Assembly: GCA_016201695.1 (NCBI GenBank)
Contig: JACQCK010000044.1
Span: 27 to 64,026, forward strand
Source: Candidatus Roizmanbacteria bacterium
GTDB taxonomy: Bacteria > Patescibacteriota > Microgenomatia > UBA1406 > GWC2-37-13
DNA length: 64,000 nt
Reading direction: 5' to 3'
Shown: in pieces, positions 2,468-59,621 of the stretch
Numbering within the stretch: position 1 is the stretch's first letter
Layout: each line of letters begins with the position of its first letter
Notes under the pieces: generated by a model
Database searches by the model: none
What the model saw: the letters and a program-made list of their open reading frames with translations, nothing else
Told to the model about the DNA's origin: nothing
Translations under genes and position numbers: made by a program

Positions 2468-2520
2468 AAATAAAATAATAATTAATAAATCCTGATCGAT
2501 TTAATTGCGCCTGTATTTTT

Positions 2521-5838: not shown

Positions 5839-7009
5839 TATGCGAAAATTAGCCAGCCTCACTATTGTCTTGCCGTTTTTCAATGATGCCGAGACAGTGG
5901 CTTTACAAATAAACGACGCCTATTCTTATGGAAAACTGATCGCCCATAAACTCCGGGTTATCGCCCTACATGGCGGTCCTTCCCAAGACTCTACTTTGAC
6001 GGAAATTATCAGGCAAAAGAAGAGTCATCCCGATCTAAAAATTATTGATAAAAAAAACAATACGGAAGGATACGCCGTTATTAAATACGGGCTGGCGGCG
6101 GCAACAACCGATTGGGTATTTTATACCGACGGCGACCGGCAGTATCACTTGTCAGACTTGGCAAAGTTGGTAAAAAAACAGAACGAAACCGGAGCGGACG
6201 TAGTAAACGGGTATAAAGCTTACCGGCGTGACGGCTTCGTTCGCACCGTCCTAGGCGAAGGATATCGTCGCCTTACCTGCTTGCTCTACCAGCTGCCTAT
6301 TCATGACCTTGACTGTGACTTTCGCCTTATAAAAACACGCCTTCTTAAAAAAATAATACTGCAAAGCCATAACGGTGCTATTTTGCCGGAAATGATAAAA
6401 AAGCTGGAGTGGGCTGGTGCGAGCTTTGCCGAAATATCAGTAAAACACTATCCGCGTATTTATGGCCGTTCAAACTACTCGCCGGTCGCCCTTACAATTG
6501 AGCTTATCAAAGGCAACTTTGTGATGTTTTTTCGGTTGCGGGCGTATCGTTATTGTATATCACTCCTGATCAATTTTCTGACTGTAATCGCTTTTTTTGT
6601 TTTAGTCTTAAATGTTTTTAGCTTGCATCTCTATTTCTCCAATCAACAAATCCCCTCGCTTTCGCAAACGAACGTCCAATTTTCCTATCGTGTTTCTCGG
6701 ATAGTTGACGTTTGGCGCTCTTCCAAAAATCTGAAACCGTATACGATTGACCAATCACTGTGCGACATAGCACTACACCGACTTAATAATTTTCGCAAAA
6801 ATGACCTCTTTCAATTACTGTATCTTCGCGACGACGATTTAAAGGGTGACACATATGACGCGATATCACCCCGATTGACAACGCCGCAACAAGTATTAGA
6901 TTATTGGCTAGGCCAGAAGAATTTTTTTGAGCGATTGAAAACTAACTTTAAGTTCTCCTGCATAAAATGCACCGATCTCAACTGTGTTCAAGTTGTCGGC
7001 AACTTTTAA
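5828..7009 (+). CDS. Family 2 glycosyltransferase with a TM segment and an unknown C-terminal domain
   Basis: LTIVLPFFNDAETV and FYTDGDRQY (DxD-like) motifs. A TM helix lies at about aa 240-265. The last ~130 aa are unassigned. Confidence 0.6.
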   Translation: MLPDMRKLASLTIVLPFFNDAETVALQINDAYSYGKLIAHKLRVIALHGGPSQDSTLTEIIRQKKSHPDLKIIDKKNNTEGYAVIKYGLAAATTDWVFYTDGDRQYHLSDLAKLVKKQNETGADVVNGYKAYRRDGFVRTVLGEGYRRLTCLLYQLPIHDLDCDFRLIKTRLLKKIILQSHNGAILPEMIKKLEWAGASFAEISVKHYPRIYGRSNYSPVALTIELIKGNFVMFFRLRAYRYCISLLINFLTVIAFFVLVLNVFSLHLYFSNQQIPSLSQTNVQFSYRVSRIVDVWRSSKNLKPYTIDQSLCDIALHRLNNFRKNDLFQLLYLRDDDLKGDTYDAISPRLTTPQQVLDYWLGQKNFFERLKTNFKFSCIKCTDLNCVQVVGNF

Positions 7010-22309: not shown

Positions 22310-23530
22310 TTATTTTAATATGCGCTTTGCCTTTTGCAAACCTTTTATTAAGGCGTCGACGTCGCCAGAATGATTGTAGAGATAAAAACTGGCCCGGGCC
22401 GAGGCGGCCACACCCAGTCTGCGGTGAAGCGGCATCGCGCAGTGGTGGCCGGCGCGAATCGCGATGTTTACTTCATCGAGAATCTGGGCTAAGTCGTGCG
22501 GATGAGTTCTTTTCAATGAAAACGAAAGTATTCCGGTACGATTTTCCCTGGGCCCCAACAAAACAAAATCCTCACCGAACGCTCGCTCCAGCTGGTCAAC
22601 TGCGTATTTCACCAACTCCGTCTCGTGTTTTTCAATCGATTCGAGACCTATTTTTTGCAGATAGACAACGGCTTCCTGCAAGGCGATTACGCCGGCAATG
22701 TGCGGCGTTCCCGCTTCAAATTTGTGCGGCGGCTGTTTAAATGTCGTTTTTTCGATACCGACCTCTTCGATCATTTCCCCGCCGTACTGGAATGGCCGCA
22801 TCGAAGTCAGCAAAGCGCGCTTTCCCCACAACACCCCGACTCCGGTTGGCCCGAGCATTTTATGCGAGGAGAAGGCCAAAAAATCGGCGCCGATCGCCGA
22901 AACATTGACTAAGCGGTGCGGTACCGCCTGCGCCGCGTCAACAACGACCACTATCCGGGGATTGATCTTTTTCGCCCGGGCGATAATTTTTTTAAGGGGA
23001 TTAACTACTCCCAGTACGTTGGAAACGTAGGTCACGGCCAGAATTTTAGTTCGTTTGGTGATAACTTCGTCAAGCGTCACGGCACTTTGCAGCTTGCCTT
23101 CCTTATCAACGTCAAGCACTTTAAATACTCCCCCGTTTTCAATCGCAAGCTGCTGCCACGGCACGAAGTTTGAGTGGTGTTCCATGATAGTTGTCACAAT
23201 TTCATCGCCTTTGCCGATGAGCCGACGGCCCAGACCGGACGCCACCAGGTTCAACGACTCGGTGGTATTGCGGGTAAAAACGACTTCCGACGCCTCTGCC
23301 CCGATAAAAGCCGCGATCAGCTTACGAGTTTTTTCATACTCAACCGTTGCTCTCTCGGATATTTTGTAAATGCCGCGGAAAACGTTGGCGCTGTACTCTT
23401 TATAATATTCATTGAGTTTATCGATGACCGTCTGCGGTTTTAAGGCCGTCGCGGTAGAATCCAGGTAAATAAGACTGGGATTCTTAGCGAATAAAGGAAA
23501 GTCTTTTTTGATGGCGCTAACGTCGAGCAT
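22310..23530 (-). CDS. sufS: Cysteine desulfurase
   Basis: SSHKMLGPTGVG (PLP Lys) and RAGHHCA (catalytic Cys). Confidence 0.9.
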   Translation of the reverse strand: MLDVSAIKKDFPLFAKNPSLIYLDSTATALKPQTVIDKLNEYYKEYSANVFRGIYKISERATVEYEKTRKLIAAFIGAEASEVVFTRNTTESLNLVASGLGRRLIGKGDEIVTTIMEHHSNFVPWQQLAIENGGVFKVLDVDKEGKLQSAVTLDEVITKRTKILAVTYVSNVLGVVNPLKKIIARAKKINPRIVVVVDAAQAVPHRLVNVSAIGADFLAFSSHKMLGPTGVGVLWGKRALLTSMRPFQYGGEMIEEVGIEKTTFKQPPHKFEAGTPHIAGVIALQEAVVYLQKIGLESIEKHETELVKYAVDQLERAFGEDFVLLGPRENRTGILSFSLKRTHPHDLAQILDEVNIAIRAGHHCAMPLHRRLGVAASARASFYLYNHSGDVDALIKGLQKAKRILK

Positions 23531-23534
23531 AATT

Positions 23535-24128
23535 TTAAAAGTGAAGTATACTCTTTTTTAACTTATCTGTCTGTGACCCAAATCCTCGCCGTTCAATTTC
23601 GTCAAAAACATGGGTAATAAAGCCTGCGACTAGTAACCGCTTTGCCACCGGTTCTTGCAGGCCGCGCGACTTTAAATAAAACAGTTGCTCTTCGTTGAGA
23701 CGGCCGGTTGTTGATCCGTGAGTGCAAAAGACGTCGTTGGCTAAAATTTCAAGAAATGGCATCGACTCGACAAAGACTTGCGGTGAAAGAATCAGGTTTT
23801 GATTTTTCTGATAGGCGTGGCTTTTTTGGGCGGATTTTTCGATACGGATCAGGCCTTGGTAATGGAACTTGGCGCGGTCGTCAAAGACGCCCTTGATAAG
23901 AAGGTTTGAGGTCGTCTCCGGCGCCAGGTGGTGCTGGACGGTTTTGATCATAAAATTATCGTCTTTGGCACCGGTATAGACGCCGAAAATCATGACGTTT
24001 ACCTGACGGGCGACGAGTTCAACGGTAATTTGCCCGGATAAGTTATGCATAAAGACGACAAAATCTCCCGGCCGACTAAAGACCAGTTTTTCCCGTTTTT
24101 CCCGATTAAGATCGATAAAGTTTGTCAT
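23535..24128 (-). CDS. sufD: Short SufD-like Fe-S assembly protein (C-terminal beta-helix part only)
   Basis: AYQKNQNLILS...PFLEILANDVFCTHGSTTGRLNEEQLFYLKSRG; 197 aa. Confidence 0.65.
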   Translation of the reverse strand: MTNFIDLNREKREKLVFSRPGDFVVFMHNLSGQITVELVARQVNVMIFGVYTGAKDDNFMIKTVQHHLAPETTSNLLIKGVFDDRAKFHYQGLIRIEKSAQKSHAYQKNQNLILSPQVFVESMPFLEILANDVFCTHGSTTGRLNEEQLFYLKSRGLQEPVAKRLLVAGFITHVFDEIERRGFGSQTDKLKKSILHF

Positions 24129-24132
24129 ACGA

Positions 24133-25533
24133 CTAGCCGACGCTGCCGGACATTTCCAAATTAATGAGGCGGTTTAGCTCGATTGAGTACTCCATGGGAA
24201 TTTCTTTGGTAACCGGAGCAATAAACCCGTTTACCAAGAGTCCCTCCGCTTCACTTTTTTTAAGGCCGCGGGACAACAGGTAAAATAATTTTTCTTCGCC
24301 TAATTTTTCGACCGTCGCCTCGTGCTGGACGGCGACTTCGTTTTCCTTAATTTTCATATACGGATATGTGTCCGACCGTGACGCTTCATCAAGAATAAGA
24401 GCGTCACAAGAAACATAAACCGAAGAGTTCTTGGCGCCGGGCATAACCTGCACCAGGCCGCGATAGGAGGTACGACCACCGTCTTTGGCGATAGACTTGG
24501 AGACAATGCGGGAAGAGGTGTTTGGGGCAAAATGGAGCATTTTGGCGCCGGCGTCCTGGTGTTGGCCGCGGCCGGCAAAGGCAATAGAAAGCACCTCGCC
24601 CCGGGCTCCTCTACCCATCAGGTAGACGCTCGGATATTTCATCGTTACTTGACTGCCCAAATTACAGTCGACCCATTCCATGATCGCATTTTCTTCGGCA
24701 CGCGCGCGCTTAGTAACCAGATTGTAGACATTTTTACTCCAGTTTTGTACCGTCGTGTAACGTACTCTGGCTCCTTTTTTGACAATAATTTCGACAACCG
24801 CCGCGTGGAGTGAATCGGTGGTATAAATCGGCGCCGTACATCCTTCGACATAATGAATATGACTACCTTCTTCGGCGATAATTAACGTTCTTTCAAACTG
24901 CCCGAACTTTTCGTCGTTGATCCGAAAGTACGCCTGTAAAGGCAAGGTGACGGTTACTCCCTTTGGCACATAGACAAACGATCCGCCGGACCAGACGGCC
25001 GAGTTTAGCGCGGCGAACGCATTGTCGGGCGGCGGAATAAGTTTACCGAAGTACTCCCTGACGATATCGGGGAATTTACGAACGGCCGTATCCATATCAC
25101 AAAAAATAACCCCTTGTTTATCGAGCTCACGGTTGATGCTCTCGTAGACCACTTCGCTTTCATACTGGGCGCTGACACCTGCCAGAAATTTCTTTTCCGC
25201 TTCGGGCACACCGATACGGTCATATGTTTCTTTTATTTCCGCCGGCAGATCCGCCCACGAGTTAACCTGTTTGTCGGTGGGTTTGATATAGTAATAAATA
25301 TCGTTAAAGTCGATTTTTGAAAGATCGGCTCCCCAAACCGGTATGGTTTTTCTGGTAAAAATGTCATACGACTTAAGCCGAAACTCGGTCATCCAGGCCG
25401 GTTCGTTTTTAAGGGCGGAAATTTCGGCGACTATTCTCCGATTCAACCCCTTTTTTGCTTTAAAGGTATAGTTTTGCGGCATGGCAAAACCATAGCGGTA
25501 GTCGAAGTCAAGATTATTTTGAGGATTAGACAT
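24133..25533 (-). CDS. sufB: Fe-S cluster assembly protein SufB
   Basis: 466 aa with typical SufB conservation (EGCTAP, ...FYLLSRGL). Confidence 0.9.
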   Translation of the reverse strand: MSNPQNNLDFDYRYGFAMPQNYTFKAKKGLNRRIVAEISALKNEPAWMTEFRLKSYDIFTRKTIPVWGADLSKIDFNDIYYYIKPTDKQVNSWADLPAEIKETYDRIGVPEAEKKFLAGVSAQYESEVVYESINRELDKQGVIFCDMDTAVRKFPDIVREYFGKLIPPPDNAFAALNSAVWSGGSFVYVPKGVTVTLPLQAYFRINDEKFGQFERTLIIAEEGSHIHYVEGCTAPIYTTDSLHAAVVEIIVKKGARVRYTTVQNWSKNVYNLVTKRARAEENAIMEWVDCNLGSQVTMKYPSVYLMGRGARGEVLSIAFAGRGQHQDAGAKMLHFAPNTSSRIVSKSIAKDGGRTSYRGLVQVMPGAKNSSVYVSCDALILDEASRSDTYPYMKIKENEVAVQHEATVEKLGEEKLFYLLSRGLKKSEAEGLLVNGFIAPVTKEIPMEYSIELNRLINLEMSGSVG

Positions 25534-25541
25534 GGACGATT

Positions 25542-26258
25542 TTACGAGTTAATAACGTCTTCATAACCTTTTTTTTCAATGAGCTTTGCCAGTTTGCCGT
25601 CGCCGACTTTCCGCAGTTTGCCGTCAGCAAGCACCAGCACTTTATCGGGTTTTAGATATTTGAGAATCCGCTGGTAATGAGTAATAATAATATAGGTTTT
25701 TTGGCCTTTAGTTTTGTCCAGAAACTGGGCGATAGTTTTTAAAGCATCGATATCAACGCCGGTATCGACCTCGTCAAAAATAATTATTTCCTTGTCCAAA
25801 ACAGCCGCCTGCAGAACTTCCATTTTCTTTTTTTCTCCGCCTGACGCGCCGTCGTTTAACGAACGGGTAAGCAGTTCTTCTTTGATCTTAAGAGCCTTGG
25901 CGTATTTTTGGACTGTCCGGCGAAGGGTCAGCGGATCTTTTTTTCCGGCGAGCGCAAGTTGCAGCAGCTGATTAATGCGCACGCCTGACAGCGATAACGG
26001 CGTTTGAAAAGACAAAAAAATACCTTTTTCGGCCCGTTTTTCCGGTGGCAAAGAAAGAATGTCCTCATTTTTCAGCCGCAGACTACCGCTTGCAACCTCG
26101 TAGGCCGGGTGGCCCATGAGTGTGTAGGCGAGCGTTGACTTGCCAGAACCGTTCGGTCCCATAATGGCGTAGATCTTGCCTTTGGCAAACTCAAACGAAA
26201 TCTTCTTAAGAATTTCTTTGTTTCCGACCTTAACGGTTAAATTGTTTAGGCTTAGCAT
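25542..26258 (-). CDS. sufC: Fe-S cluster assembly ATPase SufC
   Basis: GPNGSGKST Walker A, LSGGEKKK-like signature, FDEVDTGVD Walker B. Confidence 0.9.
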   Translation of the reverse strand: MLSLNNLTVKVGNKEILKKISFEFAKGKIYAIMGPNGSGKSTLAYTLMGHPAYEVASGSLRLKNEDILSLPPEKRAEKGIFLSFQTPLSLSGVRINQLLQLALAGKKDPLTLRRTVQKYAKALKIKEELLTRSLNDGASGGEKKKMEVLQAAVLDKEIIIFDEVDTGVDIDALKTIAQFLDKTKGQKTYIIITHYQRILKYLKPDKVLVLADGKLRKVGDGKLAKLIEKKGYEDVINS

Positions 26259-49489: not shown

Positions 49490-51008
49490 ATGATACGCAT
49501 CATTGACTTTGGTTCACAGACGACTCACCTGATTTCAAGAAGAATCCGCGAACTTGGTTCTCCGGTTGAAATAACCACTCCGCAACTGGCTCTCGAATTC
49601 AAAGGCGTGCTACCGGACGGAATTATTTTTTCCGGCGGCCCGGCTTCGGTTTACGAAAAAAGCGCCCCGACAATTGATAAAAAACTAATGAGTCTTAACA
49701 TTCCTATTCTGGGTATCTGTTATGGCGAACAGCTCATTTCTTATTTGGCAAACGGCCGGGTCCGGCCCGCAAAAAGAAGGAATACGGCCCGGCGACACTA
49801 AACATAAATGGCGCCTGCCGGCTGCTCTTGAATATTCCGGCCCGCTCGCCGGTATGGATGTCGCACGGTGACGAAGTCGTCAAAATTCCGGCCGGTTTCA
49901 AAACGCTCGCCGCCACCGAAACTATCCGTCATGCCGTCATCGCCGATGAACAGAAAAATATTTACGGCATTCAGTTTCACCCCGAAGTTATCCATACGAA
50001 ATAAGGCCGGGAGATTCTCACCAACTTTCTCAAAATCTGTCAGGTCAGATTAAATAAACAGTTTCTTGATAAAACTTTTGTCAAGCAGCTTGTTTCAGAT
50101 ATTAAAATAAAAGTCCATCAGGAAAAAGCCATCTGCGCCCTGTCAGGCGGCGTTGATTCCACGGTGGCCGCACTACTCGTTCACCGGGCGGTCGGCAGTC
50201 GCCTTACTTCAGTATATATCGACTCGGGGCTCATGCGGGAGAATGAAACCAGCGAACTAAAAAAAGTATTCGCCAAGTATTATCTTTTGAAAATAAAAGT
50301 CGTCAACGCCAAAGAAATTTTTTTAGAAAATCTGAAGGGGGTAATCAACCCCGAAAAAAAGCGACAGATCATCGGCCGGACTTTTATCAAAGTACTGGAA
50401 AAAGAAGCAAAAAAAACCGGCGCCCGCTTTTTAGTACAAGGAACAATCTATCCAGACGTCATCGAAAGCGCCGGCACCAAACACAGTCAAAAAATAAAGA
50501 CGCACCATAACGTTGCCGGACTCCCCAAGCATATGAATCTGGCTCTTATCGAGCCACTGCGGACTTTCTATAAGGACGAAGTCAGAAAAATCGGCGCGCT
50601 TCTTGATCTTCCCGCCCACATTATTCAGCGCCAGCCGTTTCCCGGCCCGGGTCTGGCGATCCGTATTATCGGCAAAGTCACCCGGAAAAAATTGCAGATT
50701 TTGCGAAAATCAGACCGGATTATCCAGGAAGAAATCGCAAGGACAAAATTAAACAAAAACTGTGGCAGGTATTTGCCGTCTATACCGGCATAAAAACGAC
50801 CGGCGTCCGCGGCGACAACCGCGCCTACGGCGACACCATCGGGATCAGAGCGCTCCTGGCCAAAGACGCCATGAGCGCCAGTTGGGCCCGCCTGCCTTAT
50901 GATTTGTTGGATAAAATGAGTGTTCGCATCGTCAACGAGATTCCATCGGTCAATCGTGTTGTCTATGACATTACCAACAAGCCCCCGGCCACGATGGAGT
51001 GGGAATAA
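49490..51008 (+). pseudogene. guaA: GMP synthase (glutamine-hydrolysing) with two frameshifts and one in-frame TAA
   Basis: Collinear GuaA segments lie in three frames: GICYGEQL..., then KKEYGPATL...VWMSHGD...FHPEVIHTK*GREILTNF...SGGVDS...FPGPGLAIR, then LWQVFAV...KPPATMEWE*. The shifts occur at A5 runs (49771..49775 and 50755..50759). The TAA is at 50002..50004. Confidence 0.85.
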
Positions 51009-51010
51009 AG

Positions 51011-51718
51011 TCAGATCACCCTTAATGCTTCGCGTTCGGCCATGAGACAAAACTGCCCGGCGGCATTGTCTATTTCCGCAACCCTCACGACCGAAAAAGC
51101 CGGCACATCTGGGTGTCCGGTTCCATGTTGCTCCACCCATCCCTGATAATCTTTATCCATCCCGACGCCCCAGGCAACCCGAACACCACTTTGCCCTGAC
51201 ACCGCGCCCAAAACCGGGCCACCCGCGCCGTACCTGGCGGCAACGTCGTCAATCACCAAAACGGCGCTACCCTCGGCAAAATTAGGTACCCCAAACCAGC
51301 ACCGCCCTTGTGTTTTATACGACCGGCCCTCGACTACTATTCCGTCATGTTCTACCGGTGGATTAACATATTTTATTGCATAAGTTATTTCGGGCGCCGG
51401 AAGATGACGGCTGACCGCTTGAGCCAGACCGGCGCCGGCGTCAAGAATCCCCAAGATGTGAGTCGGCTGAAAAGCGGAAAAGACATAAGCCAGAATCTCC
51501 CCCATTTTGTCCTCGATAGCCGGATTTCTGCCTGGATCTTTATTAAACTCACCCCAACTAATATAATCGGGTATCGTTGGATGAAGAGTCGCGTTGGCTA
51601 AGATGCGACTACGCAGTCCCCGCCAACTGACTAATAGATTTGGCGGCAAATTAACCTCCGTCCTCCTTCTTAAGCTTATAGCACTATCAATTAACTGATT
51701 TGGCAAACGTAAACCCAT
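51011..51718 (-). CDS. Type I PRTase-fold protein with a degenerate PRPP loop
   Basis: ILGILDAGAGLAQAV... then AVLVIDDVAARYGAGG, where canonical enzymes have VDDVxxTGxT. Confidence 0.5.
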   Translation of the reverse strand: MGLRLPNQLIDSAISLRRRTEVNLPPNLLVSWRGLRSRILANATLHPTIPDYISWGEFNKDPGRNPAIEDKMGEILAYVFSAFQPTHILGILDAGAGLAQAVSRHLPAPEITYAIKYVNPPVEHDGIVVEGRSYKTQGRCWFGVPNFAEGSAVLVIDDVAARYGAGGPVLGAVSGQSGVRVAWGVGMDKDYQGWVEQHGTGHPDVPAFSVVRVAEIDNAAGQFCLMAEREALRVI

Positions 51719-51720
51719 AT

Positions 51721-51744
51721 AAAAAAATCGGCCGCTCGGGCCGA
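51721..51744 (-). terminator. Intrinsic terminator (6-bp GC stem plus U7), 2 nt upstream of the ATG at 51718
   Basis: On the minus strand: tcggcc-cgagc-ggccga-ttttttt-at-ATG. Confidence 0.65.
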
Positions 51745-51809
51745 CAAATTACACCTTTAAATTTTATTAATTTGGGTCAAGAACTTCTTTCTTGATCCTT
51801 CCATGTATA

Positions 51810-51838
51810 TTTTTAGCAAACGACCTTACGAATGTCAA
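51810..51838 (-). promoter_or_regulatory. Promoter-like TTGACA-N17-TAAAAA just downstream of the 292-aa gene stop
   Basis: -35 at 51838..51833, -10 at 51815..51810. Confidence 0.45.
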
Positions 51839-51854
51839 GAGACTATCAGGAAGT

Positions 51855-52733
51855 TCAAAGCATCAGCCTATGAGGCAAACCAAGACAGGCGCACTGCAAA
51901 AACTCCATGAGCGGCGACTCCTCGTCCATTGGTGCACCCCTCATATCCAAACTTCTTCGTAATATGCAATCATCTAAGCTGCCGGTTACCCTGTTGGGAC
52001 TACTTGCGGACCAATTGCTTAATCTAACCTGCATCCTGCGAAAGGGTAGTATTACACCGTCTAGTAATGCCGGTTTGGTGCTTAGCCCGCCCGCATACAT
52101 CATGTTTTGTAACATGTACTCCCGAATCTGCTCGAGGGAGAGCGGGTTATTTTTCCGGTGCCGGGGAGTATCAACGTTCAAAAGTCCGACATCAACAGAC
52201 ATATGTAACAATCGGGGAAACTGATCTCCTTTTTCTACAATCGCAACACCGGTATCGGAGCGCATAATAATATCACCCTCTAATCTCTCGCGGTTATAAA
52301 ATTCTATTATCATTTGAACGTCCTCCGGTCCTTTCGGTTTCTGCAATACCATCGTCTCACCATAAGGACCGCAAACGGCCCAGTTGCTATCGGTGACAAA
52401 ATATGTGTTTTTTGGTTCCAAATGGTCCGGAAAAGCCACGAGCATACCCGCTTTCATAACCGCACCGGCAACAGTGTAAGGGTAGTCCCCCATACTGGTG
52501 TATTCCGTCACCATCTTATCGGCGTTGGGAACTAAAGCTTTGTGCCTTTTTTCTCCTGAATCCACTAAGTGAACTAACCACGGGTCATCGGTCGTATTCA
52601 GCCCGAGTCTTGCACAATAATCTCTTTTTATTGGACTATTAGTAACGAATTCATGCCGCACGCTTTTTTGCGGATTCAAAAGTGAAAGGTAAAATTTAAT
52701 CGGATCGTCTGTTGGTTTGATTCTCTCTGACAT
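51855..52733 (-). CDS. Hypothetical protein (orphan member of the cluster)
   Basis: 292-aa ORF, 17 nt downstream of the UPRT-like gene; no motif recognised. Confidence 0.5.
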   Translation of the reverse strand: MSERIKPTDDPIKFYLSLLNPQKSVRHEFVTNSPIKRDYCARLGLNTTDDPWLVHLVDSGEKRHKALVPNADKMVTEYTSMGDYPYTVAGAVMKAGMLVAFPDHLEPKNTYFVTDSNWAVCGPYGETMVLQKPKGPEDVQMIIEFYNRERLEGDIIMRSDTGVAIVEKGDQFPRLLHMSVDVGLLNVDTPRHRKNNPLSLEQIREYMLQNMMYAGGLSTKPALLDGVILPFRRMQVRLSNWSASSPNRVTGSLDDCILRRSLDMRGAPMDEESPLMEFLQCACLGLPHRLML

Positions 52734-52750
52734 TTCTGTACTAAATTTAT

Positions 52751-53698
52751 TTAATCCAGTGAGCGGACAAATTGGGGAAGAAATCGGTCTAAAGCATCTC
52801 CGGCATCACCGACTACGCGCGGTTCTTCGTGTTCATTATCACCAACAAGATAATACTGGGGATTCATTTCTCGCGATCTGGCTAAGGTATAAAAAAAAGT
52901 CCTGATATCCATTTTTTTCATTGCTTCACTTAAAAGCTTCATGCCTTGCTGTGTCGCCAGAACGGTCTTAAATATAATCATTGCCGGCTTTATTCCCTGC
53001 TCGACACAAGCCAGTACAAACGCCGCTGCCGAAGCGCCGCTCGCCAGTACCGTATCGCTTATGACAATCGGCTGGTCGTTCACCAATTCCGCCAAACGGT
53101 CGGGATTGTACCACTTGACCGTTACCGCCAGGTGGGTATCCGGGCTTCCTTGGGGGTGAACCCGTTTGGTATTGACCAAGACTTCTTCTGCTATTTCTTC
53201 GTCTTGTCCCCTGCCCATCTCTAATCTGGTACACACGGCGCCGGCGCGGACAAAACTTACCCGGGCGGCGTCGGGAAAATCGGCGCCAAATCGCCCGGCA
53301 TGACTGTTTAAAAGACTGTATGCATCTTGAACATACTGACGATAAACTTCCGCCCACTGTTGATTGGCATAAAAACGACTGTCACGAATCGCTTGCAGTG
53401 CATGATTACCAAGACCGGTCGCCAACTCTCTTGCCTTTGGATAATAATCCTCGAGCGCGATCATTCCGTTACTTTTCGCGCCTTCAATTTCCCACGGAGT
53501 GGTATCGCGCCCGACTAGGCCTTCAAAAATACCCCCGAAGTCGACCATGGCGTGAACCAGCGTATTTTTCGCACGGAATTCCTCCGGATTTTTTATGAGG
53601 TTATTCACGTCAAACAGGCTTCCCGGTGGTCCCGAAATTAGCCGTACCGGCTGATCGACAAAAGTTAATTGCTTAGTGTATGGCGATTCGGCGTTCAT
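52751..53698 (-). CDS. Uracil-PRTase-like protein with an extended N-terminus
   Basis: FVRAGAV (RAG motif), IVISDTVLASGASAAAFV (compare DPMLATGGS), VVGDAGDAL (compare GLGDAGDR). Confidence 0.5.
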   Translation of the reverse strand: MNAESPYTKQLTFVDQPVRLISGPPGSLFDVNNLIKNPEEFRAKNTLVHAMVDFGGIFEGLVGRDTTPWEIEGAKSNGMIALEDYYPKARELATGLGNHALQAIRDSRFYANQQWAEVYRQYVQDAYSLLNSHAGRFGADFPDAARVSFVRAGAVCTRLEMGRGQDEEIAEEVLVNTKRVHPQGSPDTHLAVTVKWYNPDRLAELVNDQPIVISDTVLASGASAAAFVLACVEQGIKPAMIIFKTVLATQQGMKLLSEAMKKMDIRTFFYTLARSREMNPQYYLVGDNEHEEPRVVGDAGDALDRFLPQFVRSLD

Positions 53699-53719
53699 TG
53701 CTTTATATTTTATAAATAA

Positions 53720-54355
53720 TTAACGCGCAAATAAAGGCATATGCCAACGGTCAAACCGACGGTAGTCCGCTATCAGTCGTTTCAGTTGAATTTTATTAAT
53801 CGCCTTGCGCTTTTTCATATATCCGATGAGCTGCTCCATGGTAATCAACGAATGCAGTTTGACTTGGTGTTTATCTTCAAGGCGCGGTCCGTCTTTTTTT
53901 CTTTGCAGTTGGCGGTCGATTATGACAACAATATCCGTTACCGTTAATTTATGATCTTTTATGATTTCGATCGCTTCTGTTTTGCTCTCTCCGGCAAAAA
54001 CAAGGTCGTCTACCAAAATCAACTTTGCCTTGTCGGGAATTATGCCTTCAATAAATTTGCTGCTCAACTGCCTTTCCAGTTTTTTTCGGATGTACAAAAA
54101 CGGCAAGCCGGAGTACAGACTGCAAATCGCGCCCCAAGCAATACCCGATGTCGCAAGACCGATAATCGTATTACCGCTGCACTCATTTTTCACCACCTCG
54201 GTAAGCCGTTTCCCTATGTACTCAAGAATTTCCGGATGAGATAACAATTTTCTCGGATCAAAAAGACACGAGCGCGAATCACCCTTGTTTTTTAAACTTT
54301 CGCCGAAGAAAAGGACTTTCAAATCAATAATTATTTTCGCCAGTTTTGTGTCCAT
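53720..54355 (-). CDS. Orotate-PRTase-like protein with a partly degenerate PRPP loop
   Basis: IIGLATSGIAWGA...FLYIRKKLE...LILVDDLVFAGESKTEAI, compared with the canonical VDDVITTGGS. Confidence 0.55.
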   Translation of the reverse strand: MDTKLAKIIIDLKVLFFGESLKNKGDSRSCLFDPRKLLSHPEILEYIGKRLTEVVKNECSGNTIIGLATSGIAWGAICSLYSGLPFLYIRKKLERQLSSKFIEGIIPDKAKLILVDDLVFAGESKTEAIEIIKDHKLTVTDIVVIIDRQLQRKKDGPRLEDKHQVKLHSLITMEQLIGYMKKRKAINKIQLKRLIADYRRFDRWHMPLFAR

Positions 54356-54365
54356 GTTTATATTA

Positions 54366-55730
54366 TTAAGTCGTCACTAGATTAGGCCTGTCCGTAAGGC
54401 CAGGCGGTACGAATTGGGAATATAGACTGTTTTTATAAGGACGATCTGAATATCCATAGATTGATCCCCAAGCGCCTTGCGTTATTTCTTCCGGCCCAGG
54501 TACCATGGGATCACACCATAAGTTACCAAGCGGGTCAATGTTGGCTACGACCACCCGACCAAAAGGTAAGTGTTGACGAAGCAGAACTTCGCGATGTAAA
54601 GCAGAGTCAGCCGCCAAAGCGAATAAGGAAAGATACCCGGTTGAATTATATAATAATCGTTTTCCTTCCTTATCTCGCCGCATATCGTCTTCAAGTATGG
54701 CCGACATATCGGCGCTTAATTGAGGTAAGTCGCTTTCCTGAATGGCATCACTAAAGGAATGTTCTTTTGGAGAATTACCCCTTATATGATACGGGTCAAC
54801 CATTAAAGGTGATACGGTCCAGCCGACTTGAGTTGGACTGTTGGCTTCTTGTGCATACCTGGCTAATTGAGTCATTTGCTCATATAGTTTAAGTAAATAT
54901 CTGGCGTTACGAGTTGAGATAACGGTATTCATAACAACCCTTCTTACGCGGTTATCGATGAAACGCTTTGCCGCACTTTGACCTGACTCGGCTTTTCTTT
55001 TACGCGAATAGTCATTTTGTTTGCGTTCTTGATCGGTTATATTTCTCGTGACTGGAAAAGGAGTTTTATCGTCCAATAAATTTCTTTCTCCCAGCGTCGG
55101 AAAAAACATTCCGTAGGGATAGTCGAACGAAAAATGAGTGGCAACTTTATAAAGCCAACCTGCGTACAAATGTGCTCTCATTAAGTCACTCATTTCGCCT
55201 GACCCATCGTTTGTTAAGTAGGACACACCATCATCAAATAGGCTATGTTTCAAGTCAGGAACCTCCAGAACCTGATTCATTATGTTCGATAACGGGGGAA
55301 AACCGACAATTGTTCCTCCGATCCACATACCATGCTGGCCGCCTTTTGCGGGAAATTCATTATGAAGAAACCATACCCGCTCCACTAATTCTTCCGGACG
55401 CTTTGCCCGCAGTTCAAGGCGCGGCATTAATCCGTTCTTAATTTTGGCCTTAACGGAATCCGTTGAGTCTTCACAACCAAGGCAGTTTAGGCCACACCGC
55501 AATGTCGGTGATGCCTCGAAACATGAAATTCCCCCTTCGCCTATAAGACCTACCTCTTTTGCCTTGTGGATTGGCGCGACACCGGTGGTTTCTAGCGGAT
55601 CTCTGTGCGCCGTTATATTAAACATTTTGGCGGTACGCTCCGGCTTAATAAATTCCTGCGAACGAAAATATTCAGTCACTATTGTTGGATCGGCGTTAAG
55701 TAAAGAACGTGGGGTGCCCTCAAAAGCCAT
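54366..55730 (-). CDS. Divergent radical-SAM-like protein
   Basis: ASPTLRCGLNCLGCE contains CX3CX2C in the usual context. A downstream WIGGTIVGFPPL resembles the GGE SAM motif. The remaining 454 aa are unassigned. Confidence 0.45.
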   Translation of the reverse strand: MAFEGTPRSLLNADPTIVTEYFRSQEFIKPERTAKMFNITAHRDPLETTGVAPIHKAKEVGLIGEGGISCFEASPTLRCGLNCLGCEDSTDSVKAKIKNGLMPRLELRAKRPEELVERVWFLHNEFPAKGGQHGMWIGGTIVGFPPLSNIMNQVLEVPDLKHSLFDDGVSYLTNDGSGEMSDLMRAHLYAGWLYKVATHFSFDYPYGMFFPTLGERNLLDDKTPFPVTRNITDQERKQNDYSRKRKAESGQSAAKRFIDNRVRRVVMNTVISTRNARYLLKLYEQMTQLARYAQEANSPTQVGWTVSPLMVDPYHIRGNSPKEHSFSDAIQESDLPQLSADMSAILEDDMRRDKEGKRLLYNSTGYLSLFALAADSALHREVLLRQHLPFGRVVVANIDPLGNLWCDPMVPGPEEITQGAWGSIYGYSDRPYKNSLYSQFVPPGLTDRPNLVTT

Positions 55731-55732
55731 AT

Positions 55733-57076
55733 TCAGGTTTTAATCTTTAACATATTGTTAATTTCCCGCTCATCAAAACCAACTAACTTCTTATCTTTTA
55801 CTACTATTTTTCCATTCACAATCACTGTATCCGCCCGGGTGGCCTGACAACTCAAAAGAGCTGTCAGCGGGTCATTGGCTCCGGTATATTCTACCGTATT
55901 TAAATTAAATATTGCAATATCGGCGGCTTTACCTACCTCCAACGAACCGATTCCGTTTTCCCAATTCAATAATTTGGCGCCATTAACCGTCCCCATTGCC
56001 AATACAACAGCGGGGTCAAGATAGGTTGATTCCTTGCGCGCTCCCTGCATTATTCTTGTCCAGCGTAATTCCTCAAGCATATTTGAAGAATCGTTTCCGG
56101 CGCTTCCGTCGACCCCGACGGCGACGGTTACCCGGTTTTTAATCATCGCCCAAACCGGCGCGATTCCCGTTTCTCCGACCGGCGCGCGCGCATTGGAAAC
56201 AGGGCAGTGAACTATTGGTGTTTTGGTCGCTGCCAACCGCTCAATTTCCTCCCGATTTAAGTTTATACCGTGGGCAAAACTGGCTCTTTCTCCGACCCAA
56301 CCCAAATCATTTAGAAAACGAAGCGGTCTTTTTTTGTTTTTTTTTAAAGAATATTCGTTTTCAAATTCCGACTCGCTCAAATGAGTCTGCATATTAACGT
56401 TATATTTTCGGGATAAATAAGCGGCCAGTTTGAAATCTTCCGCGGAACTGGTAAAAATGGTACACGGCGCGATACCGATCCGCAACAGAGAAAAAGGCGA
56501 GGCGTCGTGATATTTTCGGATGAGCGACTCGGTTTCGCTGCCGATCTCTTCACTCGTTTCGACGATCTCGTCCGGGAATAGGGAACCGTTCCTTTTACCA
56601 ACGCTTATGCTGCCGCGATAAAGGTGGAGCCGGATGCCGATATCCGCGGCCGCTTTTATGAGCGCCGGCAAAAAAAGGGTATTCTTGGGAAATAAATAAG
56701 GCATATCAGCAGTAGTGGTACAACCGTACAGTAGGAGCTCCGCCATATTCGCCAAGGCGGAATAATAGATTTCGCGGTCGGACATTTTTGCCGCCTTACG
56801 ACAGACGACATTGATCCAACGGTCGATCATCTGATTTTGAAGTTGACGATCGCCCCGCAGTTGACACTGAAACATATGATGATGACAGTTGATTAGCCCC
56901 GGAATTACCATCATTCCCCGGGCGTTTACAGTCGTATCCGCCCTTTTTTCCTTTTTTCCGATGTAAACAATTTTATTTCCTTTAAGGTAAAGGGAGTGAT
57001 TTTTGAGAATTTGACTTTTGGCATTCATGGTAACCACAAAGCCGGCATTTTTTATCAGAATCGACTTGTCTTTCAT
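55733..57076 (-). CDS. Amidohydrolase-superfamily nucleobase/nucleoside deaminase-like enzyme (COG0402 type)
   Basis: PGLINCHHHMFQ metal-binding motif, THLSES, and a C-terminal beta-sandwich. Confidence 0.7.
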   Translation of the reverse strand: MKDKSILIKNAGFVVTMNAKSQILKNHSLYLKGNKIVYIGKKEKRADTTVNARGMMVIPGLINCHHHMFQCQLRGDRQLQNQMIDRWINVVCRKAAKMSDREIYYSALANMAELLLYGCTTTADMPYLFPKNTLFLPALIKAAADIGIRLHLYRGSISVGKRNGSLFPDEIVETSEEIGSETESLIRKYHDASPFSLLRIGIAPCTIFTSSAEDFKLAAYLSRKYNVNMQTHLSESEFENEYSLKKNKKRPLRFLNDLGWVGERASFAHGINLNREEIERLAATKTPIVHCPVSNARAPVGETGIAPVWAMIKNRVTVAVGVDGSAGNDSSNMLEELRWTRIMQGARKESTYLDPAVVLAMGTVNGAKLLNWENGIGSLEVGKAADIAIFNLNTVEYTGANDPLTALLSCQATRADTVIVNGKIVVKDKKLVGFDEREINNMLKIKT

Positions 57077-57882
57077 TGATGTTTGGTTTTCAGTATCTGT
57101 AACAGACAGTGGATGCCGCCGCCGGCTTTTATAAACTCACTGACGTCAAGTTCGATTGGCCGATAGTCTAACTTTCTTAATCTGTCCGCAAAAATCTGAT
57201 TCCCTTTCGGGATTAAAACATGGTGGTCGGTGACGACGCTATTGGCGGCGAAACCGTATGCTTCCGGTTTTGTCAGGATATATAAATGCGGAATCAATTT
57301 CCGTAAAACCTGAATTGATTCTTTTGCCAGTGCTTCAGGATAATAGAAAGCGGTCTCGTCGTTTAACGCAAACAAACAGGTGTCGAGGTGAAAAAAATTC
57401 TTATCAATCAGCCTTAATTCGTATATCCTTTTGAGCTTTTTTGATAGGAATCCGACCGCATGTCTATCGCTTCGCAAGCCGGTCCCGACGAACACGTTAC
57501 CTGCGCACTCAACGACGTCTCCCCCTTCAAAAAAGCAATTTTCCGGCAAACGAACGAGCGTGTAGTTATTTTTTTCAAACCACCCGGCGTATGACCTTTG
57601 CTCGTCGCTTCGCTCGACAAAACGGAAGTTGCCAAGATAAACAGACTCTCCATTGACCCAACCGGCATCGGCGGCAAAAACCATATCCGGCAGGTCGCGC
57701 CGCTGGTGAATGCTTACCACCTCAACCTGAAGCTGCCGCAAAGCATTAATTAGATTCCGCCACTGCTTTCCGGCGAGCGCCTGATCCACTGTCCCGGGCT
57801 GCATCCAAGGGTTGATTTGATAACTCACCTGGAAGTGTCTCGGTTCGCAGGCGAGAACTTTTTTGAGAATCCGTGCCTTCAT
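57073..57882 (-). CDS. GME-superfamily amidinotransferase/hydrolase-like enzyme
   Basis: FQVSYQINPWM N-terminus and a C-terminal KAGGGIHCLLQIL catalytic Cys. 4-nt ATGA overlap with the amidohydrolase gene. Confidence 0.6.
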   Translation of the reverse strand: MKARILKKVLACEPRHFQVSYQINPWMQPGTVDQALAGKQWRNLINALRQLQVEVVSIHQRRDLPDMVFAADAGWVNGESVYLGNFRFVERSDEQRSYAGWFEKNNYTLVRLPENCFFEGGDVVECAGNVFVGTGLRSDRHAVGFLSKKLKRIYELRLIDKNFFHLDTCLFALNDETAFYYPEALAKESIQVLRKLIPHLYILTKPEAYGFAANSVVTDHHVLIPKGNQIFADRLRKLDYRPIELDVSEFIKAGGGIHCLLQILKTKHQ

Positions 57883-57883
57883 T

Positions 57884-59503
57884 TTAAACTTTGGCAGTAG
57901 TCAGTTTATTAACGGTGTCTTCGGCGACGCTGACGGTCGTGATTAACGGAACATTAAAGTGAACCGCCATCTTACGGATGATCTGTCCGTCCGTACTTTC
58001 TTTTTGGTTGATCTGCCGGCCGGTCGGAATGTTGATGATCAGATCAAAGCGGTTTTGTCCTAAAAGATGAGCTAAATTCGGTTTTTTATGCGGCTGCGAA
58101 ATTTTGTGGACCAAGATATTCTCAATACCGACTGACCTTAAAAATTTGTGAGTTTTGTACGTGGCGTACAGCTTGTATTTCAGAGCATGAAGTTTTTTAA
58201 TTTCGGCAAGCAGTTTCATTTTATTCTTTCTTTTCCCAATCGAAAGCAGTATTGTTTTTTCCGAACGTTGGGCAAGTCGCATCTGCAAAGTATAAAGTTC
58301 GATAAACCCCGGTGAGGCGTTTTGGTTAAAAGCGGTTGAGGTCATAAAAGTGGCTAATTTTTCCTCAAAAATAGTATTTGGTGTTTCGACGGCCACCGGC
58401 TCAACCCACCCCTTATACAAACGGAGGCTGACTCTACCCGTTGCTTTCTGATTGACCCGGTCGATATAGGCATTGAGGTCGTCCATCAGAGGCTCATACC
58501 ACAAACCGCTGTAACAGACATAGGCCCACTTCGTGTCAACAAACGATTTGAATTCGTTTTCCAGTCTCGTTGAAACATATTTTTCTAAATCGCGGTGGGC
58601 GCGGATAATAATTTCCGCCGCCGGCGCCTCATACACTCCTCGTACTTTGAGACCGACCACGCGATCCTCCAAGTGATGAGTGATGCCAACGGCGTGTTTT
58701 GCCCCCAATTTATTAAGAAAAAGAATCGTCTCCGCCAAAGCCATCTGTTTACCGTTGACCGAAACCGGCAGCCCTTTGACAAACTCCATTTCAATTATCT
58801 CTGCCCTGTCCGGCGCACTCTGCGGCAGGTTACAAATTTGCAGGATTTTCTCAAGCGGCGGAATGAGCGCCGGATTTTCAATCTCACCGCTTTCGCTGGT
58901 CACGCCCCACATATTGTCGTCATAGGAATAAGGTTTGTCGATTGTTTGCTTGACCGGAATGTTATGTTTTTTGGCGTAAGCTATTTCTTCATCCCGTCCC
59001 ATTGACCACTCCCGAACCGGGGCAATGATTTTGATGTCGGGATTAAGCGCCAAAGCCACGCCTTCAATCCGCAGTTGATCGTTGCCTTTTCCGGTGCATC
59101 CGTGAGCGATACAGTCGGCGTCTTCCTGTTGGGCGACTTTTACCGCCCATTTGGCGAGAAGCGGCCGCCCCAACGGCGTCGACAGATGGTAATTACCCTG
59201 ATATGAAGCATTGGCCCGAATTCCCTTGGCGATATATTCATCGGCAAACTCGTCTTTGGCATCGATCACGAGCGCTTTAATTGCGCCAAGCTTGAGTGCT
59301 TTTTTCCTCACCTCTTCAAGATCGTCCGCCTGTTGACCGATATCAATCGTTAGCGCAATTACTTCGGCCTTATACTCATCCTGTATCCATTTAATCATTA
59401 CTGAAGTATCCAAACCGCCCGAATACAGGAGCACTATTTTTTTTACCTCGCCTTTTTTGCCTTCGTAAGAACCTATTTTGAAATATTCATGATTTTTTTG
59501 CAT
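57884..59503 (-). CDS. argG: Argininosuccinate synthase fused to a C-terminal MGS-like (CarB allosteric-type) domain
   Basis: The first ~410 aa carry full ArgG motifs (LLYSGGLDTSV, AHGCTGKGNDQLR). The last 126 aa (57887..58264), TILLSIG..KLYATYKTHKFL..GI...V.K....PN.....DLIINIPTG......DG.IIRKMAV.FNVPLITT, follow the CarB C-terminal domain pattern. Confidence 0.8.
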   Translation of the reverse strand: MQKNHEYFKIGSYEGKKGEVKKIVLLYSGGLDTSVMIKWIQDEYKAEVIALTIDIGQQADDLEEVRKKALKLGAIKALVIDAKDEFADEYIAKGIRANASYQGNYHLSTPLGRPLLAKWAVKVAQQEDADCIAHGCTGKGNDQLRIEGVALALNPDIKIIAPVREWSMGRDEEIAYAKKHNIPVKQTIDKPYSYDDNMWGVTSESGEIENPALIPPLEKILQICNLPQSAPDRAEIIEMEFVKGLPVSVNGKQMALAETILFLNKLGAKHAVGITHHLEDRVVGLKVRGVYEAPAAEIIIRAHRDLEKYVSTRLENEFKSFVDTKWAYVCYSGLWYEPLMDDLNAYIDRVNQKATGRVSLRLYKGWVEPVAVETPNTIFEEKLATFMTSTAFNQNASPGFIELYTLQMRLAQRSEKTILLSIGKRKNKMKLLAEIKKLHALKYKLYATYKTHKFLRSVGIENILVHKISQPHKKPNLAHLLGQNRFDLIINIPTGRQINQKESTDGQIIRKMAVHFNVPLITTVSVAEDTVNKLTTAKV

Positions 59504-59607
59504 TTTTTTTCAAGAAAGCGCTAATTTGGCGAAGAAAACCATCAATTTTTCCAAAAAACCGACAATTTTCAAGAAAATACTACTAACTGCCCAACCGTTT
59601 GTCAAGC

Positions 59608-59621
59608 GCATTTGCAAATGC
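59608..59621. promoter_or_regulatory. Perfect 14-bp palindrome GCATTTGCAAATGC overlapping a -35-like TTGCAA of a pyrG promoter
   Basis: Palindrome read directly. TTGCAA (59612..59617)-N17-TAAAAT (59635..59640). Confidence 0.5.

Follow-up and report, generated by a model that had tools for sequence, protein, structure and literature searches.

The 64,000-nucleotide (nt) stretch of Candidatus Roizmanbacteria DNA analysed here (assembly GCA_016201695.1, contig JACQCK010000044.1; hereafter the window) carries a minus-strand cluster of eight open reading frames (ORFs), labelled g1 to g8 in transcription order, in which an argininosuccinate synthase (ArgG) is joined with enzymes of nucleotide type. 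The core of this cluster, ArgG followed by an amidohydrolase (g3) and a radical S-adenosylmethionine (SAM) protein (g4), recurs in divergent lineages. We put forward as a serious but tentative possibility, suggested by sequence and gene context, that g1 to g6 form a pyrimidine nucleotide operon in which the ring atoms enter through argininosuccinate and not through carbamoyl phosphate and aspartate transcarbamoylase. Any single step of this route deserves less confidence than the general statement. All the parts belong to known superfamilies; there is a substantial chance that they encode a new pathway.

ArgG is the best-supported enzyme identity among the proposed pathway steps. g1 scored 501.5 bits on the equivalog model NF001770 (cutoff 334) and 443.6 bits on TIGR00032 (cutoff 268), matched T. 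thermophilus ArgG (1j1z) at E 1.5e-105, and carries the N-type ATP-pyrophosphatase motif SGGLDTS as well as a GCTGKGNDQ motif. Its C-terminal part is an MGS domain (Pfam MGS, 54.7 bits, cutoff 24.1), which NCBIfam aligns to positions 932–1048 of the carbamoyl-phosphate synthetase large subunit CarB. In this ArgG-MGS fusion, the equivalents of E. coli CarB K954, T974, K993, N1015 and T1042 are kept in 9 of 9 orthologs and that of T977 in 8 of 9, and the equivalent of T1017 is mostly Pro. The roles of these residues other than T977, K993 and T1042 are presumably those seen in the structures of Thoden et al. T977 and K993 are crucial for the inhibition and binding of uridine monophosphate (UMP), and T1042 contacts ornithine (PMC6245113). 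We propose that the fused CarB-type allosteric domain places ArgG under UMP/ornithine control. Orthologs of g1 (54–73% identical) are the first gene in two cluster variants: variant B, which carries g3, g4 and g5 as in the window, and variant A, a sister cluster with the amidohydrolase PRK06886.

ArgG, g3 and g4 are adjacent in at least seven divergent lineages, namely the window, L033, L034-36, L039/40, L041, L053 and L054/55 (gene orders in Table 1). Several of the g4 contexts are short metagenomic contigs. The identity of g4 is only 28–36% across the ArgG-g3-g4 loci and 28–39% across all the tabulated g4 loci, and because of these low values the loci represent independent lineages. The conserved core of the cluster is ArgG, g3 and g4, with g6 or the uracil phosphoribosyltransferase (UPRT) Upp and the CTP synthase gene pyrG as recurrent members and g2 as an optional one. 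In the window, and in 9 of the 11 other contexts of the g4 family, the gene immediately upstream of g4 is g3; of the remaining two contexts, L037 has no g3 and L038 is too short to judge. The phosphoribosyltransferase (PRTase) g5 is a near-obligatory partner of g4; it is the next gene after g4 in all the contexts but L054/55 (38–74% identity), and the two form a natural fusion in protein P0006. pyrG adjoins the cluster in the window, L034/35 and L039, and a gene for the adenine phosphoribosyltransferase (APRT)-like protein PRK07322 occurs in L001, L033, L034 and L041. The g1-g3-g4-g5(-g6) adjacency recurs in many divergent contigs, and the cluster is a real functional association, as the original prediction had held; no described pathway that would account for it was found in the literature. 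The most divergent g4 relative, in L054/L055, stands beside HFX_2341_N/WHD_DUF6293 genes, and the region upstream is A/T-rich and TATA-like; the cluster there may be archaeal, with DUF6282 in the place of the PRTase.

g4 (annotated HY214_04550) belongs to a new and very rare radical-SAM family, for which SAM cleavage activity is predicted. An exhaustive HMMER scan of 1.84 billion protein representatives uncovered only 18 other relatives, and no description of the family was found in the literature. The three cysteines of the CX3CX2C motif (C79, C83 and C86), whose conservation the original prediction had named as a decisive point, are kept in all the family members that span the region (consensus SPTxRCPEDCxGCPD, followed by an IGGT motif). 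g4 itself had no match to any Pfam or NCBIfam family. PF04055 was matched by 8 of the 14 family members scanned singly (best E 1.6e-6), P0012 and P0013 giving weak or faint matches and the window g4 none. An AF2 model of g4 built from the 14-sequence family alignment reached a pLDDT of 86 and a pTM of 0.88, and its top 15 Foldseek matches in the PDB were all radical-SAM structures, DesII being the best (E 7.6e-7, probability 1.0); further matches were NosL, HydG, NifB, a viperin-like enzyme, LipA and HemN. The TM-scores to radical-SAM structures were only about 0.4 and the identities 8–13%. A SUF iron-sulfur assembly operon (SufS, SufD-like, SufB and the SufC ATPase; 22310-26258, minus strand) is also present in the window and is compatible with an active radical-SAM enzyme in a small genome.

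The best PDB match of g3 was VCZ (7ww2), aligned over the full length at E 7e-88. The CHHH, THLSE, AHG and GVDGSAGND segments of g3 align with the HxH, HxxE, H and D motifs of VCZ; the residues that bind zinc (HxH, H, D) are kept, as are the catalytic Glu, His and Asp. VCZ is an isocytosine-specific deaminase that attacks C2 of 2-aminopyrimidin-4-one to yield uracil, with Glu237, His271 and Asp322 as active residues (PMC10481359). g3 is short of equivalog level, scoring 425.5 bits on the 8-oxoguanine deaminase-like model NF006055 (cutoff 532). It also resembles deaminases of 5'-deoxyadenosine and methylthioadenosine (MTA), with 242 bits on NF005557 and a match to the MTA/S-adenosylhomocysteine deaminase 4f0r at E 7e-37. 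This resemblance invites another explanation, in which g3, the accessory PRTases and purine nucleoside phosphorylase (PNP) clean up 5'-deoxyadenosine, the by-product of g4, first deaminating it, then cleaving it by phosphorolysis and finally salvaging the base, while ArgG, g4 and g5 alone handle the true substrate. A PNP_UDP_1 gene ahead of g3 in L031 and the four loci with the PRK07322 gene would fit such a role. However, g3 is far closer to 8-oxoguanine/isocytosine deaminases by both profile and structure-database scores. PNP and the APRT-like gene turn up only here and there, but g3 is present almost universally, and always with ArgG on one side and g4 on the other. The sister cluster has a cytosine-deaminase-like PRK06886 yet no radical-SAM enzyme. 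We therefore give the clean-up explanation only a slim chance.

All 15 PDB matches of g5 were orotate phosphoribosyltransferases (OPRTs), the best being 2wns (E 1.8e-17). g5 is below the cutoff of the PyrE equivalog TIGR00336 (79 bits; cutoff 106.8), and its flexible catalytic loop is altered: the R-K pair is kept, and the third loop Lys is aligned to Glu. g6 is a UPRT-family protein by the Pfam model UPRTase (33.5 bits, cutoff 27, residues 201–267), and its sequence shows the phosphoribosyl pyrophosphate motif ISDTVLASGAS and a GDAGD motif. On the Upp equivalog TIGR01091, which matches the C-terminal half only, g6 scored 29.7 bits (cutoff 208). Homologs of g6 lie within the cluster in L039/40 and L041, and a true Upp takes the slot of g6 after g5 in L033, L034 and L041. 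One g6 homolog is split by an in-frame stop (L039 10673-11569; L040 2563-3459), and a 33-aa Upp remnant lies just upstream of it (L039 10512-10610). These remains suggest gene turnover at the UPRT position. The original prediction had allowed that each protein might turn out to be a standard housekeeping enzyme; g2, g3, g5 and g6 are all below the curated cutoffs of the enzymes they resemble.

With g2 as the query, loci were obtained from Daviesbacteria, Saccharibacteria and further Patescibacteria. In L002, L003, L007, L009, L012 and L014, an ArgG-MGS (69–73% identical to g1) and then g2 head the sister cluster, in which PRK06886, a divergent dihydroorotate dehydrogenase (DHODH)-like protein and a type-2 orotidine monophosphate (OMP) decarboxylase PyrF lie downstream, with a bona fide PyrE in L012. 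L006 has the same downstream module, with a canonical PyrD and g2, and no ArgG within 10 kb. The PRK06886 protein is above its NCBIfam cutoff and cytosine-deaminase-like, and its product name is "hypothetical protein". A presence matrix of the loci showed that the PRK06886/DHODH/PyrF/PyrE and g3/g4/g5 modules never co-occur. One and the same first enzyme, ArgG-MGS, thus leads into recognisable late pyrimidine enzymes in some loci and into g3-g4-g5(-Upp) in others, as would be expected if the two modules were analogous parts of a single pathway. PyrB, PyrC, CarA, full-length CarB and ornithine transcarbamoylase (OTC) were found neither in the window nor in 51 loci (about 650 kb) by tblastn with E. 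coli proteins, and the CarB matches that did appear cover the MGS domain only. These observations bear on the three roles offered by the original prediction. The DHODH/PyrF/PyrE sister cluster, the pyrG linkage, the UMP-site residues that the MGS domain retains and the likeness of g3 to VCZ point toward primary pyrimidine nucleotide formation from ArgG, which had not been precisely proposed, and away from plain salvage and from a secondary metabolite. Across L002, L003, L006, L007, L009, L012 and L014, PRK06886 consistently stands between ArgG-MGS/g2 and DHODH/PyrF/PyrE, and this placement is a functional lead for an uncharacterised family. In L003 the cluster includes two further genes, one AsnA/AsnRS-like and one aspartase-like.

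The route that we propose would run as follows. In an optional first step, g2, to judge from its ArgZ/DDAH-like active site, may convert arginine to citrulline. ArgG-MGS would then join citrulline with aspartate to argininosuccinate, and this would be the committed, UMP/ornithine-regulated step. Argininosuccinate, with its N-C(=N)-N-CH(COOH)-CH2-COOH skeleton, is an N-substituted aza-analogue of carbamoyl-aspartate: the two have exactly the same atoms except that =N-ornithine replaces =O. The argininosuccinate skeleton would be cyclised and then oxidised by g4, either by dehydrogenation or by a HemN-type oxidative decarboxylation. g3 (or PRK06886) would hydrolyse the exocyclic C2-N bond, so that ornithine is released and orotate or uracil is left. 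Finally, g5 and/or g6/Upp would add ribose phosphate to give OMP or UMP, and pyrG would lead on to cytidine triphosphate (CTP). In the sister variant, PRK06886, DHODH, PyrF and PyrE would take over the job of g3, g4 and g5. The decarboxylation by g4, from a dihydroorotate-like acid to a uracil-like base, is proposed because the variant-B clusters have no DHODH or PyrF and do have Upp; no other part of the model is as speculative. In this model g7 is a lineage-specific addition, and g8 a PRTase under separate control, like the one found beside PyrF in a related lineage.

Several points weigh against this pyrimidine route. The analysis established enzyme-family identities only, and the steps after ArgG are drawn from gene context and superfamily chemistry. 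PyrB, PyrC, CarAB, PyrD or PyrF may lie elsewhere in these genomes, the absence of the early genes having been shown for the examined loci. The variant-B clusters contain no OMP decarboxylase, and the model therefore depends either on a hypothetical oxidative decarboxylation through g4 or on a pyrF located far away. Were uracil the product, the presence of g5 beside Upp/g6 would be left unexplained, and the consumption of one SAM per pyrimidine would be costly. The resemblance of g3 to 5'-deoxyadenosine/MTA deaminases, together with the APRT-like gene and PNP in some clusters, means that part of the module could recycle radical-SAM by-products. g2 was found alone in many loci, and in L037 g4 and g5 are accompanied by transporters only, near nonribosomal peptide synthetase (NRPS)-like genes. 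Lastly, the disruptions of argH, argG2 and guaA described below could be assembly errors.

A second arginine-type operon in the window (421-3873, minus strand) contains argH, argG2 and a DDAH-like gene. In argH, a TAA stop (2902-2904) stands in frame at the place of a conserved Glu codon. argG2 has no MGS domain, is 63% identical to g1 over the N-terminal 257 aa and 53% over the remainder, and carries a frameshift near position 1694. The DDAH-like gene (421-1227; 268 aa) is intact. From these sequences the ordinary arginine genes of the organism look defunct, and if the argH lesion is real, g1 cannot serve arginine synthesis through the argH of the window. This matters for the explanation that the cluster is a mosaic of ordinary functions co-located for regulation, which we consider unlikely. 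There, ArgG would make arginine from scavenged citrulline with an ArgH encoded elsewhere, g3 would be a nucleobase deaminase (of guanine, 8-oxoguanine, isocytosine or cytosine), the PRTases would salvage bases, g4 would serve some unrelated radical-SAM function, and the MGS domain would do no more than keep the supplies of arginine and nucleotides in balance. The mosaic explanation gains from the canonical ArgG in g1, from an argH homolog in the same window, from the salvage genes nearby (PNP, an Xpt-like PRTase, guaA and rdgB), from Upp and the APRT-like PRTase in related clusters and from the PNP that adjoins g3 in L031; Patescibacteria are also generally described as salvage-dependent (preprint 10.64898/2026.09.16.751625). 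However, the sole argH seen has the interrupting stop codon, and g2, g3, g5 and g6 do not reach the housekeeping cutoffs. Co-regulation by itself does not account for the strict ArgG-g3-g4 adjacency at such low g4 identity, including in the MGS-less archaeal-looking context. It also leaves unexplained the fusion of g4 with g5 and an ArgG-MGS that heads a DHODH/PyrF/PyrE cluster without PyrB and PyrC.

The 262-kb contig L037 carries g4 and g5 without ArgG or g3, flanked by major facilitator superfamily (MFS) and ABC transporters. A PP-binding reductase, proteins of 1,543 and 2,411 aa and NRPS-like genes lie beside them, and the context is possibly outside Patescibacteria. Such surroundings agree with a rather improbable alternative, namely that the core of ArgG, g3, g4 and g5 makes a modified nucleobase or nucleotide, or a nucleotide-like antimetabolite or cofactor, from a guanidino precursor derived from arginine or aspartate, g4 performing an unusual C-C or C-N radical step and g5 ribosylating the new heterocycle. 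The novelty and rarity of the g4 family, whose nearest folds (DesII, NosL and HydG) serve specialised biosynthesis, would suit this alternative, as would the atypical g5, in which the catalytic-loop lysine is not aligned, and the lack of a matching pathway in the literature. On the other hand, most carriers are Patescibacteria with genomes of about 1 Mb, in which specialised metabolism is unlikely, and the recurrent partners pyrG and Upp are primary pyrimidine genes, as are DHODH, PyrF and PyrE in the sister module. The UMP-site residues of the MGS domain are typical of feedback in a primary pathway. PADLOC gave no meaningful match for the cluster, the only ones being trivial (QueC-like, through the ATP-pyrophosphatase fold, and PRTase_III-A at E 6e-5), and a reading as anti-phage defence was rejected on that ground.

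g2 is a member of the guanidino-group-modifying enzyme (GME) superfamily by profile search. Its best PDB matches were the arginine dihydrolase ArgZ (6jv0/6juy, E 6e-42), and its FFHLDTC and GGGIHC segments align with HLDTC and GGAAKC of ArgZ, the catalytic His and the C-terminal Cys being in place. It is below all the NCBIfam cutoffs: 218.7 bits for dimethylarginine dimethylaminohydrolase (DDAH) of the Mtb type (cutoff 300), 174 for Arg_dihydro (cutoff 450) and 17.6 for arcA (cutoff 489). g2 adjoins ArgG-MGS in L002, L003, L007, L009, L012 and L014 and g3 in L001, and it is absent from L033, L034, L039, L041 and L053.

The layout of the cluster had been described correctly: the eight ORFs lie at the predicted minus-strand positions, the predicted spacing was reproduced (gaps of 1, -4, 2, 10, 21, 17 and 136 nt from g1 to g8), and profile searches with Pfam and NCBIfam returned the predicted domain calls. 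In codon log-odds against the housekeeping genes of the window, 8 of 8 ORFs were positive in frame and negative off frame. The upstream regions of g1 to g7 are A/U-rich and have no Shine-Dalgarno sequence. What did not hold is the cluster as a conserved eight-gene unit, g7 being an ORFan, g8 probably transcribed on its own and elsewhere linked to PyrF, and g2 optional. g7 carries coding signal by codon log-odds. A search of 5.8 billion protein clusters with g7 found only itself, and g7 had no match in Pfam, NCBIfam, PADLOC, the PDB or any examined locus. The idea that g7 is a decayed PyrF, whose position in L042 it occupies, was rejected for its lack of similarity to PyrF or anything else. The start of g8 is most probably the TTG at 51649, which an AGGAGG Shine-Dalgarno sequence precedes; the NCBI model likewise has 212 aa. 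The PRTase match of g8 is weak. Its homolog P0022 (46% identical) carries PF00156, and g8 has one homolog family. In L042-46, the g8 homolog lies directly downstream of PyrF, in the slot that PyrE normally holds, and beside lysS and greA, as g8 does in the window.

Table 1 Features of the g1–g8 cluster in the window and gene orders of related loci.
Feature or locus	Position	Strand	Basis, remark or gene order
g1, ArgG-MGS, whole gene	57884-59503	-	
g1 catalytic part, canonical argininosuccinate synthase (N-terminal 415 aa)	58259-59449	-	NCBIfam, PDB
g1 C-terminal MGS domain, homolog of the CarB allosteric (UMP/IMP/ornithine) domain	57938-58210	-	Pfam, NCBIfam
g2, guanidino-group-modifying hydrolase nearest ArgZ/DDAH	57073-57882	-	PDB matches
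g3, COG0402 metallo-amidohydrolase, 8-oxoguanine/isocytosine deaminase clade	55733-57076	-	PDB, Pfam Amidohydro_1
g4, prototype of a rare and divergent radical-SAM family	54366-55730	-	CX3CX2C at 55473-55496
g5, OPRT-like type-I phosphoribosyltransferase	53720-54355	-	
g6, UPRT-family protein with N-terminal extension of ~190 aa	52751-53698	-	
g7, lineage-specific ORFan, 292 aa	51855-52733	-	last gene before terminator
g8, divergent PRTase, 212 aa from TTG at 51649	51011-51649	-	alternative ATG 51718
Intrinsic terminator, 7-bp GC-rich stem then seven T	51719-51745	-	51745-51727, then the T run; 136-nt g7/g8 gap
Promoter-like site TTGACA-18-AAAAAT upstream of g8 leader	51809-51838	-	
Divergent g1/pyrG control region	59577-59621		g1 promoter-like site 59605-59577 (-) and palindrome 59608-59621
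L033			ArgG-MGS, g3, g4, g5, Upp, APRT-like PRTase, then purine operon
L034-36			ArgG-MGS, g3, g4, g5, Upp, PaaX-like, APRT-like, then pyrG
L039/40			ArgG-MGS, g3, g4, g5, g6, pyrG
L041			g6, ArgG-MGS, g3, g4, g5, Upp
L053			ArgG-MGS, g3, g4, g5
L054/55			ArgG without MGS, g3, g4, DUF6282 (archaeal-looking context)
L001 (Woesebacteria)			g2, g3, g4, g5, APRT-like
L031/32			PNP (PNP_UDP_1), g3, natural g4~g5 fusion protein P0006
L052			g3, g4, g5 (contig end cuts g5)
L037			g4, g5 between transporters

The predicted neighbours are all present: pyrG, divergent from g1 across a 156-nt gap, rdgB, a Gpt/Xpt-like PRTase and PNP, and in addition serS, greA and lysS. The predicted convergence with guaA stood in part: the last stop of guaA lies 2 nt from the stop of g8, but guaA (49490-51008, plus strand) has its coding sequence scattered over four or more frames (49490-49801, 49828-50004, 50164-50793 and 50871-51008) and appears to be either a pseudogene or affected by assembly indels. 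All of g1 to g8 are intact, whereas three genes in the 64 kb (guaA, argH and argG2) are disrupted.

Because of the terminator in the 136-nt gap and the separate Shine-Dalgarno sequence and TTG start of g8, the sequence suggests that g1 to g7 form one transcription unit and that g8 is separately controlled or attenuated. The terminator was the top-ranked terminator-like site in a scan of the 14 kb from 48 to 62 kb. The g8 leader (51649-51838, minus strand) comprises, in order, the promoter-like site, a 15-codon ORF MEGSRKKFLTQINKI, the terminator, and the Shine-Dalgarno sequence with the TTG start. The idea of a riboswitch in the 136-nt gap was rejected for want of any Rfam match there. A perfect palindrome of 14 bp, GCATTTGCAAATGC, is located between the promoter-like site of g1 and that of pyrG and overlaps the -35 element of pyrG. 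It was considered as a possible shared operator; it is unique in the window yet not statistically significant by itself, since in 34 of 100 shuffles a match with two or fewer mismatches turned up once or more.

In related clusters, a conserved attenuator-like leader precedes ArgG-MGS (L033 ~6790-6998, L034 ~70-195, L039 ~5470-5600 and L053 ~3170-3316) and, in L041 (~1310-1430), g6. It consists of a sigma-70-type promoter, a 5' hairpin (CCAGG...CCUGG) holding the Shine-Dalgarno sequence and AUG of a 13–19-codon ORF, a U-rich tract and a strong terminator abutting the start codon. The leader of g1 in the window does not have this layout, but that of g8 follows the same logic in miniature. The layout recalls the UTP-sensitive attenuation of pyrBI and pyrE in E. 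coli. The leaders of the related clusters had no Rfam match at gathering or permissive thresholds. Control of the leader by PyrR, considered for the "UUCCAGGG" hairpin upstream of ArgG-MGS, was rejected on the lack of an Rfam match and on the identity of the accessory 188/211-aa PRTase as PRK07322 APRT-like; the "UUCCAGGG" motif is more plausibly the Shine-Dalgarno sequence that serves the leader ORF.

De novo pyrimidine synthesis is treated as a single universal six-step route, and the argininosuccinate entry, if true, would show another way of accomplishing the first three of them. It is conceivable, and to be held with more reserve than the operon assignment itself, that the pyrimidine ring is formed in some Patescibacteria, and in one or more archaeal-looking lineages, with neither carbamoyl phosphate nor aspartate transcarbamoylase nor dihydroorotase, and that in the radical-SAM variant a single oxidative decarboxylation by g4 may replace both DHODH and OMP decarboxylase. 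The argininosuccinate route would explain some of the "incomplete" nucleotide biosynthesis scores of Patescibacteria genomes, tie the growth of episymbionts to host-derived arginine or citrulline, and give functions to the ArgG-MGS fusion, the PRK06886 amidohydrolase and a radical-SAM family with fewer than 20 known representatives. Should the pyrimidine reading prove wrong, the strictly conserved ArgG-amidohydrolase-radical-SAM-PRTase core would still mark an undescribed pathway that uses argininosuccinate for a non-arginine purpose. Neither an ArgG-dependent pyrimidine route nor a role for the ArgG-MGS fusion was found described in the literature.

The individual enzymes have several known counterparts. 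g4 shares CX3CX2C and a partial (beta/alpha)6 TIM-barrel fold with DesII, NosL, HydG/ThiH and HemN. Of these, HemN and DesII show that oxidative decarboxylation and dehydrogenation are within the reach of radical-SAM enzymes. Unlike the enzymes with which it is compared, g4 has Gly and not an aromatic residue before the third Cys, and no auxiliary-cluster or SPASM domain was detected in it. g3 shares its catalytic residues with VCZ and 8-oxoguanine deaminase (7ww2, 3hpa), and the C2 chemistry of VCZ is the step that the model needs, but the leaving group proposed for g3 is an N-alkylamine (ornithine) and not NH3. Relatives in the family of g3, such as AtzB, displace alkylamines. In the UMP synthase fusions of eukaryotes and kinetoplastids, where OPRT is joined with OMP decarboxylase, an OPRT-type PRTase is likewise fused or adjacent to the enzyme of a neighbouring step; the partner in P0006 is a radical-SAM protein and not a TIM-barrel OMP decarboxylase.

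Among pathways, the cyanobacterial ornithine-ammonia cycle (ArgZ, ArgG, ArgH) resembles the cluster in that ArgZ is the nearest solved relative of g2 and that ArgG is paired with a guanidino hydrolase twice in the window (g1 with g2, and argG2 with the DDAH-like gene). However, g2 has no C-terminal domains such as those of ArgZ and has Asp in place of the Asn of the ArgZ FTANAG motif, the cluster continues into nucleotide enzymes, and the argH of the window is disrupted. In Thermococcus, arginine feeds pyrimidine synthesis, there through carbamoyl phosphate (PMC13260591). The arginine synthetase pathway of Thermococcus kodakarensis (PMC13260591) and the arginine deiminase pathway share with the proposed route a ureido carbon from arginine or citrulline and not from bicarbonate and ammonia, as well as a predicted ornithine co-product, and both suit organisms without carbamoyl-phosphate synthetase. 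They differ in that OTC phosphorolyses citrulline to carbamoyl phosphate, which passes to PyrB, whereas no OTC, carbamate kinase or PyrB lies near the cluster and the proposed carrier is argininosuccinate. With the canonical de novo pathway (CarAB, PyrB, PyrC, PyrD, PyrE and PyrF), the cluster would share the UMP/CTP product and aspartate as the source of N1 and C4-C6; an OPRT-type PRTase, pyrG and a CarB allosteric domain on the first enzyme are common to both, and the sister cluster has genuine DHODH, PyrF and PyrE. In contrast to that pathway, the entry enzyme is argininosuccinate synthase, the examined loci have no CarA, CarB catalytic part, PyrB or PyrC, the amidohydrolase is of deaminase type (COG0402 or PRK06886) and not of dihydroorotase type, and in the window a radical-SAM enzyme would stand at the place of DHODH and perhaps of PyrF.

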